Below are positions 3,195 through 44,348 of a stretch of 64,000 nt of DNA, one piece after another. Source of the stretch: an uncultured Candidatus Saccharibacteria bacterium (GTDB lineage Bacteria > Patescibacteriota > Saccharimonadia > Saccharimonadales > Saccharimonadaceae); contig CAZMQX010000001.1 of the NCBI GenBank assembly GCA_964568745.1, forward strand, positions 13,408-77,407, written 5' to 3'. Every line of letters starts with the position of its first letter. Position 1 is the first letter of the stretch. Under the pieces are notes generated by a model, which was given only the letters and a program-made list of their open reading frames with translations, did no database searches and was not told the DNA's origin. Both the position numbers and the translations under genes were made by a program.

Positions 3195-4379
3195 ATGGCA
3201 AATTTTGACCGTTCCAAACCACATATCAATGTGGGGACCATGGGTCACGTCGACCATGGTAAAACTACTTTAACGGCTGCGATTACTAGCGTACTCGCGA
3301 AGAGGCTTCCGTCGGACGTTAATAAACCAGTCGCTTATGACCAAATCGATAACGCTCCTGAGGAGAAGGCTCGTGGTATTACCATTGCCACCTCTCACCA
3401 AGAGTATGAGTCAGAGAAGCGCCACTACGCACACGTAGACATGCCAGGCCACGCTGACTACATTAAAAACATGATTACCGGTGCTGCTCAGGTAGATGGC
3501 GCTATCCTCGTGGTAGCTGCGAATGATGGTCCTTTGCCACAGACTCGTGAGCACGTACTTCTTGCTCACCAGGTGAACGTGCCAAAGATCATTGTCTTCC
3601 TCAACAAGATGGATCTAGCTGATCCAGAGCTAGTTGAGCTAGTCGAAATGGACGTCAGAGAGCTTCTCAACAAATATGGCTTTGATGGCGACAATGCTCC
3701 GATCATCAAGGGTTCTGCAACTAAGGCCTTAGAGGGTGACAAGGAAAACGAAGACGCTATCATGGAACTCGTCACTGCGATGGATGAGTACTTCGATATT
3801 CCTGAACATGACCTCGACAAGCCGTTTCTCATGCCGATTGAAGATGTATTCTCGATCAAGGGTCGTGGTACAGTTGCCACTGGCCGTATTGAGCAAGGCG
3901 TGATTAAACTGAACGACGAAGTCGAAATCGTTGGTCTAAAAGACACTCAGAAGTCTGTCGTGACTGGTATCGAAGCCTTCCACAAGACTCTTGACCAAGG
4001 TCAAGCCGGCGATAACGCAGGGTTGCTCCTTCGTGGTATCGAGCGCGATCAGATTGAGCGTGGTCAGGTGATTGCAAAGCCTGGTTCTATCACTCCTCAT
4101 ACTGAATTTGAGGCACAAGTTTATATCTTGAAGAAAGAGGAAGGCGGTCGCCATACTCCATTCTCCAAGGGTTATAAACCACAGTTCTACTTCCGCACCA
4201 CCGATGTGACTGGCGAAGTCGAGCTCCCGGCTGACAAAGAGATTGTTATGCCTGGCGATCAAGTTACCTTCAAGGTTAAATTGCTCGCTCCGGTGGCTAT
4301 GAACGATCAAGATCGTTTCGCTATCCGCGAAGGTGGCAAGACTGTTGGTTCTGGTGTTATCACTAAGGTTATCAAATAG
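3195..4379 (+). CDS. tuf: Elongation factor Tu
   Basis: 394 aa; [36 protein letters not shown]. Confidence 0.99.
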
Positions 4380-22500: not shown

Positions 22501-22550
22501 ATCTTTATTTTACCACGTAGTGTGGTATAATCGAAACATTAACAATTATA

Positions 22551-22641
22551 ATATCGAGAAGGAGTGAGGGAACGGCCCTTTGAGCTCCTGCCAACCTACC
22601 GTTTTGGCAAGGTGGTAAATCCGACCAGAAAGGAAAGATAT
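22551..22641 (+). promoter_or_regulatory. SAM-I riboswitch (translational type)
   Basis: ATCGAGA-AGGAG-TGAGGGAACGGCCC-TTTGA-GCTCC-T-GCCAACC...AGGTGGTAAATCC...AAGAT matches the SAM-I core; P1 atatc/gatat overlaps the metK ATG; extended -10 TGGTATAAT at 22523-31. Confidence 0.88.
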
Positions 22642-23605
22642 GTTCTATAGAACTGCGGAGAGCGTTTCTCCGAAACACCCAGACAAATTGTGTGACCGAA
22701 TCTCTGACGCGATTTTGGACGCTTATTTTGAAAAAGATCCAAATGCTCGCGTAGCAGCTGAGACTTGTGGTGGACACGGCGTAGTCTTTGTGACTGGTGA
22801 AATCACGTCGACGGCTGACGATATCGATATCCCAGCGATAGTCCACAGAATCGCAGGTGACGATATTGAAGTTCATACCAAGATAGTAAAACAATCGCCC
22901 GAAATCGCTCAAGGCGTAGATACTGGTGGAGCCGGTGACCAGGGAATCATGATCGGTTTTGCCTGTGATGAAACACCAGAAATGCTACCACGCGAAGTGG
23001 TGCTAGCGAGACGACTCAACCAATACATCTATGACAAACATGCTTATGATGGCAAGACACAAATTACTTTGGCACCAGACGGCTCGGTGGATTCTATCGT
23101 GGCTAGTTTTCAGAATGTACCGCACGACGAACTAGAAAAAATCGTACGAGAATTCATTAAGGAACACAAACTTGAGGGTAAATTAGAACTCCATATTAAT
23201 CCGGCAGGAGATTGGAACCAAGGCGGTTTTGACGCTGATACCGGCTTGACTGGTCGTAAACTGATTGTAGATAATTATGGGCCACGCGTGGCGATCGGTG
23301 GTGGCTGTTATTCTGGCAAAGATCCATCAAAGGTTGACCGTTCGGCTGCCTATATGGCACGTCGAATTGCGGTAGATTACCTAAGGAAGCGTAAAGCTCA
23401 TGAGGTGTTGGTGCGACTAGCCTATGCGATCGGCTACGCCGAGCCGCTCGAAAAGACCGTGATCATTGATGGCAAGCCTGAGGAGATCGAGGGCTATGAT
23501 CTCACACCGAATGGCATCATCAAATACCTAGACCTCAAGCGGCCGATTTATGAGGAGACTGCTTGCTATGGACATTATGGCGAAGGATTCGACTGGGACC
23601 GCTAG
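22640..23605 (+). CDS. metK: S-adenosylmethionine synthetase (compact)
   Basis: ESVSPKHPDK.CD.ISD, GAGDQG, GLTGRK.IVD.YG, GGG..SGKD..KVDRS. Confidence 0.96.
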   Translation: MFYRTAESVSPKHPDKLCDRISDAILDAYFEKDPNARVAAETCGGHGVVFVTGEITSTADDIDIPAIVHRIAGDDIEVHTKIVKQSPEIAQGVDTGGAGDQGIMIGFACDETPEMLPREVVLARRLNQYIYDKHAYDGKTQITLAPDGSVDSIVASFQNVPHDELEKIVREFIKEHKLEGKLELHINPAGDWNQGGFDADTGLTGRKLIVDNYGPRVAIGGGCYSGKDPSKVDRSAAYMARRIAVDYLRKRKAHEVLVRLAYAIGYAEPLEKTVIIDGKPEEIEGYDLTPNGIIKYLDLKRPIYEETACYGHYGEGFDWDR

Positions 23606-25191: not shown

Positions 25192-25278
25192 TGGTGGGCA
25201 AAGAGGGACTTGAACCCTCACAGTGTTGCCACTAGCAGATTTTGAGTCTACCGCGTCTACCAGTTCCGCCATTCGCCC
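25192..25278 (-). tRNA. tRNA-Leu (CAA)
   Basis: GGGCGAA acceptor, TGGTAGA D-loop, anticodon stem gtaga-CT CAA AA-tctgc, long variable arm, GGTTCAAGTCC, encoded CCA. Confidence 0.96.
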
Positions 25279-32952: not shown

Positions 32953-33028
32953 GGCCTCGTCGTCTAGTGGTTAGGACGTCTGGTTCTCATCCAGAAAATC
33001 GCGGGTTCGACTCCCGCCGAGGTCACCA
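32953..33028 (+). tRNA. tRNA-Glu (CTC)
   Basis: GGCCTCG acceptor, anticodon stem tctgg-TT CTC AT-ccaga, GGTTCGACTCC, encoded CCA. Confidence 0.97.
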
Positions 33029-36597: not shown

Positions 36598-37989
36598 ATG
36601 AAGAGATTGCCTATCGTAGCGTTGATTGGTCAGACGAATGCTGGAAAATCGAGCATCCTGAATCGTTTGGCGCGCAAAAATATCGCCATTGTAGCACGCG
36701 AGGAGGGAACTACGCGCGATAATGTTGTGGCAACGATAGATGATAGTTTTATTTTGATAGATACTGCTGGTCTGAAAGACCCGTCTGATGATTTTGAGGC
36801 ATCGATCCAAGAACAGATCAGTGACGCGATCGATGCGGCCGATGTAATATTGGTCACATTGGATTCGTCGAAATATTTTGATCATCGTGACGCAAAAATT
36901 GCCAAGGATGCGCTCCGTTCTAAAAAGCCGGTTTTGCTCGTTTTGAATAAGTGCGACTTAGGCGAGTCATTGCCGATAGAAGAATTTCGCGCCCTCGGTA
37001 TTGCGCCAGAGAACACTTTTTATATTTCGGCGACGACTGGACAGGGTATTGACAGCCTGAAAAGGCAATTGGAATATGGTTTTTCTCGGGACGGCGTCGC
37101 TCCATCCCGTCGTCACGGGCGGAGCGCGCCTTCATCCTCGGTCGTAACCTCCGGACACCCTCAAAAAACATATTCCCAATTGCCTTTTTGTCAAACTCCC
37201 CTGAAAATCGCTCTGATCGGGCGGCCGAATGTCGGGAAGTCGTCGCTTTTTAATGCTCTGGGGAAGAAACAGCAGGCGATCGTGAGTTCAAAACAGGGAA
37301 CCACGCGCGATGTAAATCGTGTATCCGTGAAGTACAAGGGACGAGAGCTTGAGATTTTAGACACGGCGGGCCTGAGAAAGCCAGGGAAGCGCGAAGTGGG
37401 GATCGAAAAGTTCTCAGCGATTCGTACTTTAGCGGCGATTGAGGAGGCGGATATTTGTTGTCTTCTCGTCGATGCTACCGAGCCGCACGCTAAGCTCGAC
37501 CAAACTCTCGCTGGACAGATCGTTGAAGCCGGTAAAGGTATAATCATGGTGGTGACCAAAGTAGACTTACTGAAGTCGTCAGCTGAGGATTCGAATACAC
37601 TTCTTGATGACCTTGAGCGAGATTTTGACTTTTTGCCGTTTGCGCCGGTGGTATTGACTAGCTCTGAGACAGGGGAGAATGTCACAAGATTATTTGAACT
37701 AGCACTCCAGATAGACGAATCAAGACACCAAGAGGTCAAAACTTCAGAACTCAATAAGATCCTCGGCGATGCGATGGTGAGCCACCCGCCGGCTGGCCTC
37801 AAAAATACAAGACCAAAACCAAAATACATCGTGCAAACTGATACTTGCCCACCGTGGTTTGTGGTACATGGTCACGACCTAGGGTTGCTACATTGGTCGT
37901 GGAAGCGATTTTTGGAGCGCAAAATCCGTGAAAAATACCCGTTTATTGGTACTCCGATCATGTTTTCTTTTCGAAACGACCAAAAATAA
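36598..37989 (+). CDS. der: Ribosome biogenesis GTPase Der (EngA) with an in-frame palindromic insertion in the GD1-GD2 linker
   Basis: Two G-domains (GQTNAGKS, DTAG, NKCD; GRPNVGKS, DTAG, TKVD) and KH-like C-terminus. Confidence 0.96.
   Translation: MKRLPIVALIGQTNAGKSSILNRLARKNIAIVAREEGTTRDNVVATIDDSFILIDTAGLKDPSDDFEASIQEQISDAIDAADVILVTLDSSKYFDHRDAKIAKDALRSKKPVLLVLNKCDLGESLPIEEFRALGIAPENTFYISATTGQGIDSLKRQLEYGFSRDGVAPSRRHGRSAPSSSVVTSGHPQKTYSQLPFCQTPLKIALIGRPNVGKSSLFNALGKKQQAIVSSKQGTTRDVNRVSVKYKGRELEILDTAGLRKPGKREVGIEKFSAIRTLAAIEEADICCLLVDATEPHAKLDQTLAGQIVEAGKGIIMVVTKVDLLKSSAEDSNTLLDDLERDFDFLPFAPVVLTSSETGENVTRLFELALQIDESRHQEVKTSELNKILGDAMVSHPPAGLKNTRPKPKYIVQTDTCPPWFVVHGHDLGLLHWSWKRFLERKIREKYPFIGTPIMFSFRNDQK
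37060..37188. repeat. Palindromic element E4 (diverged family A), in frame in der
   Basis: 13-bp perfect arms aaaaggcaattgg/ccaattgcctttt; 79-nt core 37084-37162 shares blocks tctcggg, gcgtcgctc, cccgtcg, cacggg, gcgcgc, ctccg, ccctc with 11535-11613. Confidence 0.88.
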
Positions 37990-40329: not shown

Positions 40330-41253
40330 CCCCCAGTTGTTCATACCGAGGGGGTGGACGCGGGATTTGATCTCAAGGAGAGTGATGGTTTGATTAAAAA
40401 TTTCGGGTGGGAGATGAGTAGCGCGCATAATTTCTTCGCCAGAACGGAGGCCACTATTTAAGGCTTGAAGAATTTTGGTTTCGATATCGTTATCACCGAT
40501 GAGATGATTGGTTTTGAGATTTTTCTTCGCATAGTCTTCTGGGAAGAGTAGGCGAAGAACATCGTCTGGCTCAGTATAAGGAAGCGCGCCTTGCTGGATT
40601 AACTTGTTGCAACCCTGAGAATAAGGATTTGTGATATTCCCCGGGACGGCAAACACTTCCTTGCCTTGAGCGAGGGCATGAGAGGCAGTGTTTAAGGATC
40701 CGGATTTAACCGCGGACTCAACGACAACGACAACGTCCGAAAGCCCAGAAATAATCCTATTGCGTTCTAAGAAACTAGTTTTTGGAAATGGGGAAGACCC
40801 GGGGGCATATTCGGAGATAATCGCGCCGTTTTGCTCAACAATCTTTCTGGCGACTGGTTCATGGGGCTTTGGATAGATATCATCAATTGCAGTGCCAAGT
40901 ACCGCGACCGTGATGCCACCAGCATCGAGACAACCGCGATGTGAAATTGTATCAATCCCAAAAGCCAAACCGGAAACGATCACCGCACCACGCTTGCCGA
41001 GCTCGTAGGCGAGCTTATAGGCGACTTCCTCACCATATCTAGTATTATGACGCGAACCGACGATGGCGACGGTCTTGGGGCGCCCTGGAATGCTGTTTTT
41101 GTTCGCTTTTTTTGACATATTTTCTGGTAATTTTCCACGAAAATACAATGTTTTAGGCTTAAGCGCAATAGAGCTTAACACCTCTGTAAAAATGTGTTCT
41201 TGGGGCGATATTTGGTTGATTTTATCAAAAAAGTTGGTAAAAAGTGTTGACAT
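40321..41253 (-). CDS. dprA: DNA-processing protein DprA
   Basis: AIVGSR, VSGLAFGID, AVLGT, SEY, F..RNRIISGLS, SGSLNTA, FAVPG. Confidence 0.95.
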   Translation of the reverse strand: MSTLFTNFFDKINQISPQEHIFTEVLSSIALKPKTLYFRGKLPENMSKKANKNSIPGRPKTVAIVGSRHNTRYGEEVAYKLAYELGKRGAVIVSGLAFGIDTISHRGCLDAGGITVAVLGTAIDDIYPKPHEPVARKIVEQNGAIISEYAPGSSPFPKTSFLERNRIISGLSDVVVVVESAVKSGSLNTASHALAQGKEVFAVPGNITNPYSQGCNKLIQQGALPYTEPDDVLRLLFPEDYAKKNLKTNHLIGDNDIETKILQALNSGLRSGEEIMRATHLPPEIFNQTITLLEIKSRVHPLGMNNWGLA

Positions 41254-41275
41254 TTTATTTCTCCTGTGCTATAAT
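41247..41275 (+). promoter_or_regulatory. Perfect consensus sigma70 promoter
   Basis: TTGACA (41247-52), 17-nt spacer, TG-C-TATAAT (41270-75); the -35 overlaps the dprA start codon on the other strand. Confidence 0.85.
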
Positions 41276-41281
41276 TTAGTC

Positions 41282-41592
41282 AGTTGGTACCCAAAAAGGT
41301 ACCACACCGCACCTAAATAAGTTATAATTTCAGCTATACTACTTCCAGTATAGCAGAAATTGCGAGCTTTTGAAACCCTTTCGGACTTGGAATTTCTTCA
41401 TGGTTCTCAAGTTTATAAGTATTACCTCCACTTTGAAAGGAATCTTTCGAAGGCTTAGCAATCCCTCTAACCGGCGGGCCCCAGAACTAGTGTGAGGTGG
41501 GTTACGCTCCGGGGGTTACCCGGTATAGTAGTGAAGCGTTAGAGGGCCAAAATAGCCTCAGGTGATGCCCACCCTTACCTGAGGCTATTTTG
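41282..41592 (+). ncRNA. Candidate ~310-nt structured non-coding RNA
   Basis: Consensus promoter, at least four helices, its own 16-bp terminator; only a 31-codon ORF (41400-41495) without an SD. Confidence 0.5.
41548..41592 (+). terminator. Strong hairpin terminator
   Basis: 16-bp perfect caaaatagcctcaggt/acctgaggctattttg with a 13-nt loop. Confidence 0.85.
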
Positions 41593-41611: not shown

Positions 41612-41637
41612 AAAAAACCCTGGCCAAAAAGCCAGGG
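41612..41637 (-). terminator. Terminator of the 41651-41986 gene
   Basis: A6 + ccctggc-caaaaa-gccaggg. Confidence 0.75.
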
Positions 41638-41650
41638 CAAGAATAAGGTG

Positions 41651-41986
41651 CTATTTGTCCAAAAATGACATCAGAGCGTCAACTATTGCTGGGTCAAGCG
41701 TGAGCTCTTGCTTGGACTTTGGATTATTCGGTAATTCCGAATCAAGACCTAATTTGGAGTACAGAGTGCTAAGGGCTCTTTTTTTCTTTTTTGAGAGTTC
41801 ATCTAACTGATTGTAGAGCTCTCGCTTGAGCATTTTAGTTGCTAGCCTGTAACGCTCCTGACGCACTGGGTCCTTGGGGTTCATAGCTAGTATAAGCTTC
41901 TCCGCTGTAAGATGCTCTTGATTTTTGCGAATGTAATACTCCGCTATAGCTTGACGCTTATTTGCGTTAGTGATATTAATGGACAT
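41651..41986 (-). CDS. Hypothetical basic helical protein (111 aa)
   Basis: G-rich SD upstream, own terminator, no recognised motif. Confidence 0.65.
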   Translation of the reverse strand: MSINITNANKRQAIAEYYIRKNQEHLTAEKLILAMNPKDPVRQERYRLATKMLKRELYNQLDELSKKKKRALSTLYSKLGLDSELPNNPKSKQELTLDPAIVDALMSFLDK

Positions 41987-42083
41987 TTCACTGCCCCCCT
42001 TTCTGTTGGATACTTATATAATAGCATAGAGATAGAGTTTTGTCAAGGTCGCTTATGGTTGACTGGTGTGTTATCATAGTTAT

Positions 42084-44348
42084 ATGGCAAAAAATTTGGT
42101 GATAGTGGAGAGTCCGGCAAAAGCCAAAACCATCGAAAAATATCTGGGCGCTGATTTCAAGGTGCTTGCTTCGGTGGGGCATATCCGTAAGGACACAAAG
42201 GTCGATAAGTCTACTTTTGATGTAACTTACGAGATAGACCCGGGACACACCAAAATTATTTCTGAACTAAAAAAAGAGGCCAAAGCGGCCGACAAAATCT
42301 GGCTCGCAACAGATGAAGACCGCGAAGGCGAGTCGATTTCTTGGCATCTATGCGAGGTATTGAAGCTACCAAAAGACACGGCTAGAATTACTTTTCATGA
42401 GATCACTAAGCCGGCGCTAGAACAGGCAATTGAACATCCACGGACAGTAGATATGGATATGGTGTCGAGCCAGCAAGCCAGGCAAACGCTAGATATGCTT
42501 GTGGGCTACGATCTTTCCGATATCGTGCGACGCAAGGTGCCCGGTGCGGTATCAGCTGGACGCGTGCAATCTCCAGCACTCCGGCTCATTGTAGAGCGCG
42601 AAAAGGAAGTCGAGAAGTTTGAAAGTAAATTTGATTTTAAAATAACAGGGAAATTTTTCAAAGACTCGGAATTTACTGCAAATTTGGAGAAGAATAGTCC
42701 GAAAGATGAAAAAACGACTGAAGCACTACTGAGGAAGCTGTCGGCGGAGAGGTTCACGGTAGTGGATGTAGAAGAAACAGACGGGGTGAAGGCGAACCCG
42801 GTTCCGTTTACAACGGCAGCTCTCCAGATTGAAGCAAATGCTAAGTTAGGATTTTCGTCGCGGACCACCATGAGTGCTGCGCAAGGCCTGTATCAGGCAG
42901 GGTTAATTACTTATCACCGCACAGATTCGTTGAATTTATCATCACAAGCGATATCGGCGATCGCGTCATATATTGAAAACAAATTTGGCAAGAATTATTT
43001 GAGAGTACGTTCATTTAAAACGAAATCGGCTTCGGCGCAAGAGGCGCATGAAGCGATTCGTCCAACTGATGTAACGAGAGTCGTAGCAGGGAAGAATGAT
43101 TATGAAAAACGGTTGTATCAGTTGATTTGGGCGCGGACAGTGGCGACGCAAATGGCGAATGCCAAGATCGCCAAAACCACTATTCATCTTTCGCATGATT
43201 TTGTGGCCAAAGGTGAAATGGTGGTGTTTGACGGATTTTTGAAAGTTTATGGCAAGTCAAAAGATACGGAATTGCCAAAATTGAAAAAAGGCGATTCACT
43301 TGATTGCCTGGAGCTTACCGCGAAACAGACTTTTAGCAAGCCGCCGGCTAGGTACACCGAAGGGTCTTTAGTGAAAAAATTAGAGGAATTAGGAATTGGG
43401 CGGCCATCAACCTACGCTTCGATTATGACCGCAATCCAGGCTCGTAAATACGTCGAAAAAGGCGAATCCGAAGGTCAAACTAGAGAGGTGGTGGAATTAC
43501 ACGCCAAAAAGGGTGCTATCAACCGTGAATTAATACAAGAAAAATATGGAGCCAACAAAGGTAAACTCGTCCCCACGCCGATTGGAGAGCTGGTGTCAGG
43601 ATTTTTGACTGACAACTTCAAAAACATTGTGGATTATAAGTTTACGGCAAATATCGAGAAAGACCTGGACCTCGTGGCAGACGCCAAATTGGAGCGCGTA
43701 AAAATGCTTCGAGATTTCTACGGGCCGTTTCATGATACAGTTTTGATGGCGAATGGAGTGGAACGCTATAACAATGCACGTTTGCTCGGTCATCACCCCG
43801 AGAATGGCAAACCAATCTATGCAAAAGTTGGCAAAAATGGTGGTTTTATCCAACTGGGCGACAACGAGAAGGAGACAAAAGAAAAACCGAGATTCGCGCC
43901 TCTACCAAAACGAAAGACCGTAAAGAGTGTGACCTTGAAACAGGCACTCCAGCAACTGGCTTTGCCGGCATTGCCACGAGTATTGGGAGAAGCTCCGGAC
44001 GGAACAGAGCTCATCGCCGCAAATGGACCTTTTGGTCCTTATCTAAAAGGCGGTAAGTACAATATTCCGATGAAAGATCTAGATCCGTATACGGTGACCT
44101 TTGATGAAGCTCTGCCTTTGTACCAGAAAAAACTCGACTCAATGATCGCAGATTTTGGCGAAATTCAGATTATCAATGGCGCTTATGGACCATACGTAAA
44201 GGGGCCGGGACGACGCAATAATGTCAAAATACCAAAGGACATCGATCCGAAGACGCTGACGGAAGATTCGGCGCGCGAAATGCTCAAAAATAAACCAAAA
44301 ACTGCTAGGCGCGGCGTGCGTGGTAAGCGTAAGAAAAGTACTAAATAA
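42084..44348 (+). CDS. topA: DNA topoisomerase I
   Basis: LVIVESPAKAKTI, ATDEDREGE, SAGRVQS, ITYHRTDS (catalytic Tyr), GIGRPSTYA, C-terminal G.FGPY repeats. Confidence 0.98.
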   Translation: MAKNLVIVESPAKAKTIEKYLGADFKVLASVGHIRKDTKVDKSTFDVTYEIDPGHTKIISELKKEAKAADKIWLATDEDREGESISWHLCEVLKLPKDTARITFHEITKPALEQAIEHPRTVDMDMVSSQQARQTLDMLVGYDLSDIVRRKVPGAVSAGRVQSPALRLIVEREKEVEKFESKFDFKITGKFFKDSEFTANLEKNSPKDEKTTEALLRKLSAERFTVVDVEETDGVKANPVPFTTAALQIEANAKLGFSSRTTMSAAQGLYQAGLITYHRTDSLNLSSQAISAIASYIENKFGKNYLRVRSFKTKSASAQEAHEAIRPTDVTRVVAGKNDYEKRLYQLIWARTVATQMANAKIAKTTIHLSHDFVAKGEMVVFDGFLKVYGKSKDTELPKLKKGDSLDCLELTAKQTFSKPPARYTEGSLVKKLEELGIGRPSTYASIMTAIQARKYVEKGESEGQTREVVELHAKKGAINRELIQEKYGANKGKLVPTPIGELVSGFLTDNFKNIVDYKFTANIEKDLDLVADAKLERVKMLRDFYGPFHDTVLMANGVERYNNARLLGHHPENGKPIYAKVGKNGGFIQLGDNEKETKEKPRFAPLPKRKTVKSVTLKQALQQLALPALPRVLGEAPDGTELIAANGPFGPYLKGGKYNIPMKDLDPYTVTFDEALPLYQKKLDSMIADFGEIQIINGAYGPYVKGPGRRNNVKIPKDIDPKTLTEDSAREMLKNKPKTARRGVRGKRKKSTK

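Follow-up and report, generated by a model that had tools for sequence, protein, structure and literature searches.

A structured RNA gene of Saccharibacteria with a 16S rRNA tail-like loop and a candidate target in the hsp20 ribosome-binding site

Introduction

The closest described counterparts of the RNA reported here are Gram-positive regulators, Staphylococcus RNAIII (through hairpins 7, 13 and 14) and RsaE/RoxS, which offer an unpaired C-rich loop to the Shine-Dalgarno (SD) region of a target mRNA, and RNA thermometers such as ROSE, fourU and the Synechocystis hsp17 leader, in which an anti-SD sequence masks the SD and AUG of an Hsp20-family gene in cis. Complex, lineage-restricted RNAs, such as the raiA motif RNA, OLE, ROOL and GOLLD, have been found by comparative genomics. 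According to a 2022 preprint on the TM7x transcriptome, no small or regulatory RNAs were validated in Saccharibacteria (10.1101/2022.03.25.485537). Here we analyze a stretch of 64,000 nucleotides (nt) from an uncultured Candidatus Saccharibacteria bacterium of the order Saccharimonadales (contig CAZMQX010000001.1; genome of 643 kb in 28 contigs, 93.75% complete), which we call the window and to whose first letter all positions below refer unless a contig is named. Positions 41282-41592 of its plus strand hold what is almost certainly a genuine new structured RNA gene, one that displays a copy of the 16S rRNA 3′ tail in a hairpin loop and whose best candidate target is the ribosome-binding site (RBS) of a small heat-shock gene, hsp20. 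A literature search returned no description of this RNA.

Results

A Single-Copy RNA Gene Conserved in Saccharibacteria

The RNA unit is bounded by promoter and terminator motifs. An earlier reading of the letters alone (hereafter the sequence-only reading) had called its promoter the best in the window, and indeed it matches the sigma-70 consensus at 12 of 12 positions and is the sole perfect match within the 64 kb, with 12 perfect matches in the whole 643-kb genome. Judged from these motifs, transcription would start near 41282, and 41282-41592 on the plus strand would form a stand-alone gene for a structured non-coding RNA of ~310 nt, transcribed from promoter to terminator. A near-consensus TTGACA-17-TGCTAAAAT promoter precedes the RNA at 25 of 29 distant loci, and promoter and terminator are both retained across the order. 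The order-wide conservation of these two elements, together with the covarying helices and an unconserved open reading frame (ORF) described below, bears out the structured, non-coding promoter-to-terminator unit that the sequence-only reading had proposed. The features of the RNA gene, all on the plus strand, are as follows.

41247-41275: sigma-70 promoter, 12/12 match (TTGACA-17-TGcTATAAT), with the -35 box TTGACA at 41247-52, a 17-nt spacer and the extended -10 box TGcTATAAT at 41267-75
41285-41304: P1, 5′ hairpin UGGUACC/GGUACCA, with compensatory changes at 6 of 9 pairs in the genus alignment
41305-41326: single-stranded linker ACACCGCACCUAAAUAAGUUAU, with invariant columns and the order-wide form GYACCUUAUACCCCC
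41327-41360: P2, hairpin of variable length AUUUCAGCUAUAC/GUAUAGCAGAAAU, with double changes at 10 of 12 pairs
41361-41460: P3 domain, in which the long-range helix P3 encloses P3b, P3c and the anti-SD hairpin
41361-75 with 41445-60: P3, long-range helix of 15-16 base pairs (bp), 96.5% paired, with 5 compensatory pairs
41377-82 with 41435-40: P3b, with double changes at 5 of 6 pairs
41383-41414: P3c hairpin, with the conserved loop UUCUUCAUGG
41417-41433: anti-SD hairpin, with a weak stem AAGU/ACUU (41417-20 with 41430-33) and the loop AUUACCUCC (41421-29)
41463-41546: 3′ three-way-junction domain, in which P4 encloses P5 and P6
41463-71 with 41538-46: P4, 9 bp, 100% paired, with 3 compensatory pairs in the genus and further support order-wide
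41473-41508: P5, whose pairs are never broken and show zero double changes; it holds GGUGGGU at 41497-41503
41509-23: P6
41549-41592: intrinsic terminator, an 18-bp hairpin with a covarying stem, followed by a U-tract
41560-63 with 41577-80: inner terminator stem AGGU/ACCU, closing the invariant 13-nt loop GAUGCCCACCCUU (41564-76)

Homologs are widespread. Within the genus, blastn located the unit in 31 of 36 genomes at 69-92% identity, and the exact core motif occurs in 114 or more species genomes, whose sources are gut, rumen and mouth; nearly all are titled Candidatus Saccharibacteria, Nanosyncoccus or TM7 HOT-351, and a few bear other bin labels. A model of the genus 3′ domain (R1) matched 54 of the 151 genomes of the order; a second model rebuilt from these matches (R2) raised the count to 142 of 151 (123 of 131 high-quality genomes and 115 of 120 genera), nearly always with a single match per genome. 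R2 also matched 36 of ~105 genomes from the other orders of the class, and it matched none of ~144 genomes in the phylum sample outside the order. The RNA gene is ancient in Saccharibacteria and single-copy; nearly all the order genomes searched have it, as does part of the remainder of the class. As a genuine undescribed, class-restricted and structured RNA gene, it supplies a new annotation family of the Rfam type that covers hundreds of Candidate Phyla Radiation (CPR) genomes.

The Fold Is Supported by Covariation

The plus strand of the unit folds at -114 kcal/mol (z = -5.3). In the genus alignment of 29 full-length sequences, invariant blocks alternate with variable helices. Standard pairs fill 88.9% of its cells, compared with 37-52% for controls in which the partners were slid; double changes occur at 45 of 103 pairs, compared with 27.1±2.6 in shuffles, and the covariation score is 0.196, compared with at most 0.094 for the slid controls. 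The order-wide alignment, which was fitted to a covariance model, shows 93.9% of cells paired and double changes at 29 of 39 pairs, compared with 15.9±2.0. Several G-U pairs in P3 are compatible with the plus strand only. The terminator stem covaries in the genus alignment and again order-wide, where 14 of the 16 pairs of helix 4 do so.

Comparison with the helices drawn by the sequence-only reading shows that those at 41285-304, 41333-54 and 41463-546, as well as the terminator at 41549-41592, are present and covary. Its local helix at 41431-52 can be drawn in this sequence but is not a conserved pairing: the 3′ arm belongs instead to the covarying long-range helix P3, and this true pairing was missed.

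The terminator loop offers a further possible contact. Its core GCCCACCC is unchanged throughout the order, and its GCCCACC could pair with the GGUGGGU of P5 to form a pseudoknot. The GGUGGG and CCCACC motifs are nearly invariant in the order, and the position of GGUGGG shifts between lineages. Covariation for this pairing was not found, and the loop motif is absent from some other orders, which have different loops; we therefore put the pseudoknot forward only as a hypothesis.

Several relatives depart from the common architecture. P2 varies in length and carries an insert of more than 200 nt in one relative. Inserts of ~190-230 nt interrupt the RNA gene of two distant homologs, within P2 in L174 and between P3 and P4 in L176, possibly representing a mobile element or an expansion domain. 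Two genomes carry two tandem copies of the whole 3′ domain (G037:C8:21097-21572 and G152:C1:124580-125055), and extra terminator-type hairpins with a GCCCACC loop lie just 3′ of the RNA gene at three loci (L008:1877-1926 and 2610-2649, L011 and L019). In several metagenome-assembled genomes (G002, G011, G022 and G001) the gene is cut by contig ends, mostly at query positions 140-240, from P3c to the anti-SD hairpin. These cuts suggest strain-level variation or an assembly problem, which may also explain the apparent absence of the RNA from complete genomes such as G150 and G025.

The Anti-SD Loop Copies the 16S rRNA Tail and Is Complementary to the hsp20 Ribosome-Binding Site

The weakly closed hairpin of the P3 domain displays an unpaired CCUCC motif in its loop, as expected of anti-SD RNAs with C-rich loops. 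The loop, AUUACCUCC, is invariant in the 29 genus sequences and, over its 9 nt, is identical to the 3′ tail of the organism's own 16S rRNA, which ends GGAUUACCUCCUUUCU; two other families have the same tail. In most of the order the hairpin reads AAGUUGUUACCCUCCACUU. In other orders it takes the form CUAAA(A)-(n)CACCCUCC-UUU(U)AG, in which the stem covaries and ACCCUCC is kept. That the ACCUCC loop matches the 16S tail had escaped the sequence-only reading, as had the match to the hsp20 RBS that follows.

The reverse complement of the order's loop, the 15-mer GUGGAGGGUAACAAC, was searched for in five complete genomes. In three of these, from different families, it occurs at exactly two sites, one in the RNA gene and one elsewhere. 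The second site directly precedes the AUG of the same gene in all three families, an Hsp20/alpha-crystallin gene (PF00011, 66.8 bits) that 140 of 151 genomes of the class carry as a single copy. As a control, a 15-mer taken from the terminator loop was tried and had no second complementary site in the 5 genomes, and no target in trans was found for that loop.

When the hsp20 site (-30 to +6) was compared with the cognate RNA and with the 16S tail in 24 genomes, the longest contiguous complement to the RNA had a median of 11.5 nt (range 6-17), compared with 5 nt to the 16S tail, and the median duplex energies were -23.3 and -10.7 kcal/mol, respectively. The consensus site is (A)(A)GUGGAGGGUAACAACU-AUG. 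Conservation at the 5′ side of hsp20 starts where the complement starts, and the leaders further upstream are unrelated. The strict motif UGGAGGGUAAC-N0-9-AUGGC was found in 57 of the 151 order genomes, with about ten of the listed UGGAGGGUAAC matches being the antisense of the RNA gene itself and a few genomes matching only there; a reversed control gave 0.

Both partners show matching changes in some lineages. In the organism's own genus the RNA has lost one C (leaving CCUCC) and the hsp20 site one G (leaving GGAGG), which is compensatory, and in G104 two adjacent double changes give UUUCUA in the RNA and AGAA in the hsp20 site. The own-genome ortholog lies at C16:42-548, on a different contig from the RNA gene, with the site UAAGUGGAGGAAAUAUGG, and the pairing takes in the SD together with the first two letters, AU, of the start codon. 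Conserved complementarity is found across the order, is weaker in the own genus and is not found in the other orders. The hsp20 leader itself has no stable structure (-3.3 kcal/mol, z = 0.15), which makes a cis thermometer unlikely; a thermometer of the ROSE or fourU type was rejected because the leader is unstructured and the RNA gene and hsp20 lie on different contigs.

Two further complementarities came to light. A perfect 17-nt complement of the 5′ linker (ACACCGCACCUAAAUAA) lies at G000:C12:~489-505 on the minus strand (L204/L205), in codons 6-11 of a gene for a secreted or membrane-anchored protein (MKKIVIYLGAVLMVG...). Two close relatives retain part of the match and other genus members have lost it; the gene was rejected as a conserved target of the linker because most genus orthologs do not keep the match, which is probably young or due to chance. 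At G000:C19:~3440-3560 (L314), upstream of a G5/RpfB-like gene, a TTGACA-17-TGCTAAAAT promoter is followed by ~85 nt and a terminator. This second small orphan unit, which has no Rfam match at E≤1, contains CUGGAGGUAAUACGU, with 12 nt of complementarity to the anti-SD loop of the ~310-nt RNA, and could represent a small RNA or serve as a decoy for that loop.

A Trans-Acting Anti-SD Model and a Ribonucleoprotein Alternative

These data suggest a model in which the RNA represses hsp20 translation in trans through its 16S tail-like loop, a reading to which we give a probability of about 0.5. In this model the weakly closed hairpin would expose the copied 16S 3′ tail, which reads AUUACCUCC in this organism and UGUUACCCUCC in most of the order. 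The loop and the opened stem would then base-pair with the region from the SD to the AUG of the single hsp20 mRNA. Such pairing, were it to take place in vivo, would out-compete the 30S subunit and hold hsp20 translation down until heat, stress or RNA turnover relieved the block. The P3 helix, the three-way junction and the terminator loop, through a possible kissing contact with GGUGGG, would serve as a stable compact scaffold or as the part that binds a partner. Since natural transformation makes Saccharibacteria genetically tractable (PMC10633639), mutants of the loop and of the RBS could test the model directly.

Several observations weigh against this model. In the own genome UAAGUGGAGGAAAUAUGG pairs with AAGUAUUACCUCCACUU over just 9 bp, followed by an A.A mismatch and 5 bp, and in a genome-wide RNAduplex scan of that genome hsp20 fell outside the top 25 sites. 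Three genera of one family (G312, G182 and G100) keep CCCUCC opposite GGAGGAUAUC, uncompensated, and in G042 the match spans 6 nt only. The RNA loop and the hsp20 site are each so highly conserved that their complementarity is for the most part inherited from a common ancestor and not a product of repeated covariation. In the other orders the loop motif is kept and the hsp20 site matches just at the SD level, over 5-7 nt, so the RNA cannot owe its existence originally or solely to hsp20. Finally, one antisense contact would not require a molecule of 300 nt that has a conserved three-way junction and an invariant terminator loop.

A different explanation, which we consider unlikely, is that the RNA is a housekeeping ribonucleoprotein (RNP) RNA or a protein or ribosome decoy, like 6S, signal recognition particle (SRP) or Y RNA, in which the 16S tail-like loop and the C-rich terminator loop are binding sites for a protein or the ribosome and the hsp20 match is secondary. 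The near-universal, single-copy occurrence in the order and the consensus promoter fit this proposal, as do long covarying helices with variable inserts beside invariant junctions and loops, which are typical of RNP RNAs. It would also explain why the loop motif is kept in orders without an extended hsp20 match and why the terminator loop is invariant without an antisense target. However, a match of 15-17 nt to one specific RBS is unexpected for a pure protein decoy, and dprA is the sole protein gene that co-localizes with the RNA (see below). No partner was found either. In other bacteria Era binds the 16S 3′ tail, but an Era GTPase with a KH domain was undetected in the own genome, in which the best TIGR00436 matches are the two GTPase domains of Der (window ~36616-37692) and other GTPases. 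Binding of Era to the loop was rejected for this reason.

The Divergent dprA Gene and Other Neighbors

The region next to the RNA gene holds the following features.

41253-41251, minus strand: ATG start codon of dprA, inside the -35 box of the RNA promoter
41265-41261, minus strand: SD of dprA, AGGAG, inside the promoter spacer
41400-41495, plus strand: 31-codon ORF with an ATG start and without an SD, not a gene
41617-41638, minus strand: terminator of the convergent ORFs
41651-41986 and 41988-42248, minus strand: two small convergent ORFs of 111 and 86 amino acids (aa), with no Pfam match

The overlap of the dprA start codon with the -35 box, pointed out by the sequence-only reading, is present, as is the separate terminator that it assigned to the convergent gene. 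The Pfam DprA domain begins at residue 11 of the 310-aa dprA ORF. Given that the ATG lies in the -35 box and the SD in the promoter spacer, the 5′ leader of dprA must overlap the 5′ portion of the RNA gene in antisense. On the minus strand, P2 contains an extended -10-like sequence, TGTTAGAAT/TGCTATACT, and the opposite strand of the linker (41305-41326) may double as a dprA promoter or leader. The head-to-head arrangement is conserved class-wide: dprA lies divergently upstream of the RNA at 28 of 29 distant order loci, with a different arrangement at L181, and at 8 of 10 loci from other orders. Across 24 distant loci the dprA start falls within the -35 box or at most ~40 nt from it in most cases, and at most ~100 nt from it in a few. 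This conservation makes the interplay with dprA that the sequence-only reading suggested plausible.

It is a larger step to propose that local control of dprA, a gene of DNA uptake and recombination, is the main role of the RNA, whether by promoter interference or by antisense pairing of its 5′ part with the dprA leader. We regard this as improbable. The conserved divergent arrangement, the obligate antisense overlap, the -10-like sequence in P2 and the lack of conservation of the downstream neighbor all speak for it; yet such a scheme gives no function to most of the covarying structure (P3, P4 and the terminator loop), which lies 100-300 nt away from dprA, and L181 does not follow the arrangement. 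Synteny alone also counts for little if, as is said, gene order is generally stable in Saccharibacteria.

Downstream, the genes differ in identity and orientation among the distant loci, so the RNA is not a leader, and a cis leader or riboswitch was rejected on the grounds that these genes vary and are often convergent. Elsewhere, the window contains a SAM-I riboswitch (22548-22644, plus strand, 61.9 bits), a tRNA-Leu (25192-25278, minus strand) and a tRNA-Glu (32953-33028, plus strand).

Relation to Known RNA Families and to the Small ORF

A very divergent copy of a known RNA, whether SRP RNA, 6S RNA, tmRNA, RNase P RNA, HEARO/omega RNA or a riboswitch or leader, is very improbable. It would be in keeping with the failure of the Rfam models to detect SRP RNA or 6S RNA anywhere in the genome. 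However, the Rfam 15 covariance models gave zero matches to the RNA copy at the gathering score, with HEARO, T-box, riboswitches, raiA and OLE among the families covered, and none of value at E≤10; zero matches were likewise obtained for 20 distant homolog loci. The sequence-only reading, which had named Rfam as the place to check, had found no hallmarks of tmRNA, RNase P or SRP RNA, and its judgment agrees with the models. ARAGORN found no tmRNA in the window and neither tRNA nor tmRNA at the RNA locus. tmRNA (C15:418-772, 99 bits) and RNase P RNA (C15:5993-6330, 214 bits) are encoded on another contig, and both were rejected as identities for this RNA. 6S RNA was rejected as well: RF00013 has no match in the own genome, and the ends of the RNA form the local hairpin P1 and a local terminator, unlike the paired rod of 6S RNA.

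SRP RNA received the closest scrutiny. The GGUG, UGUAAU and CCCACC motifs of the RNA bear a loose resemblance to an SRP Alu domain. With the SRP RNA models (RF00169/RF01854), neither the own genome, searched as far as E≤10, nor 61 relatives gave a match. The Ffh M domain (PF02978) and the SRP54 GTPase (PF00448) were undetected in the own genome and in the order, while the control genomes all scored; 30 relatives yielded just weak P-loop matches, and the 151-genome phylum sample essentially none. The sole strong SRP54-type match is an FtsY fragment beside smc in G008, which has no homolog in the own genome and is probably contamination. The absence of SRP appears to be phylum-wide in the sample examined, and loss of SRP has already been reported for Parcubacteria (PMC4508563). 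Because Ffh and FtsY were not found and no model matches, SRP RNA was rejected.

A small protein is virtually excluded: the 31-codon ORF, ATG start notwithstanding, has no SD, as the sequence-only reading had seen, its start is lost or its frame broken in 26 of 28 homologs, and substitutions track base pairing and not codons.

Discussion

The RNA described here may do more than silence one gene. Our tentative broader proposal is that it is a class-specific, essential-like "SD clamp" acting in trans, a free-standing copy of the anti-SD tail that would gate hsp20 and perhaps other mRNAs with strong SD sequences. It might function as a thermometer or stress sensor in trans, built on the three-way junction and the pseudoknot of the terminator loop, and its transcription would interlock with that of the competence gene dprA. 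If this is true, the CPR would have its first defined functional regulatory RNA, and small heat-shock proteins a new form of control.

Comparison with known systems places the RNA near several of them. Like 6S and SRP RNA, it appears to be a housekeeping, single-copy RNA with a strong promoter, in genomes that lack detectable 6S or SRP RNA. However, it does not form the rod with a central bubble seen in 6S RNA and, unlike SRP RNA, has no domain IV and no Ffh or FtsY partner. With the raiA motif RNA, OLE, ROOL and GOLLD it shares a complex conserved fold with invariant junctions and loops, restriction to a lineage and discovery through comparative genomics. In contrast to these RNAs, to which it has no homology, it is smaller (~300 nt), has a predicted antisense target and is restricted to the Saccharimonadia.

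The likeness to RNAIII and RsaE/RoxS lies in the mode of action predicted here. As in those RNAs, the gene has its own promoter and terminator and no conserved downstream gene on the same strand, and its unpaired CCUCC-containing loop is complementary to the SD region of a target mRNA, for which a block of the 30S subunit is predicted; as in Staphylococcus RNAIII, the RNA is large and has multiple helices. In contrast to the Gram-positive RNAs, with which it has no sequence or profile relationship (the Rfam search being negative), it is conserved across a whole class and not a genus or family, its loop copies 9 nt of the 16S tail, and its complementarity to a single target reaches 15-17 nt. 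One conserved target has been found so far, and a conserved three-way junction and an invariant terminator loop set the RNA apart as well. Finally, the RNA shares with ROSE, fourU and the Synechocystis hsp17 leader an Hsp20-family gene and the masking, predicted in this case, of its SD and AUG by an anti-SD sequence. In those systems the anti-SD is part of the mRNA that it controls, whereas here it resides in a separate RNA encoded elsewhere and the hsp20 leader has no stable fold. If the model is correct, a mimic of the 16S rRNA tail would provide in trans the masking of the SD of a small heat-shock gene that is so far known only in cis.

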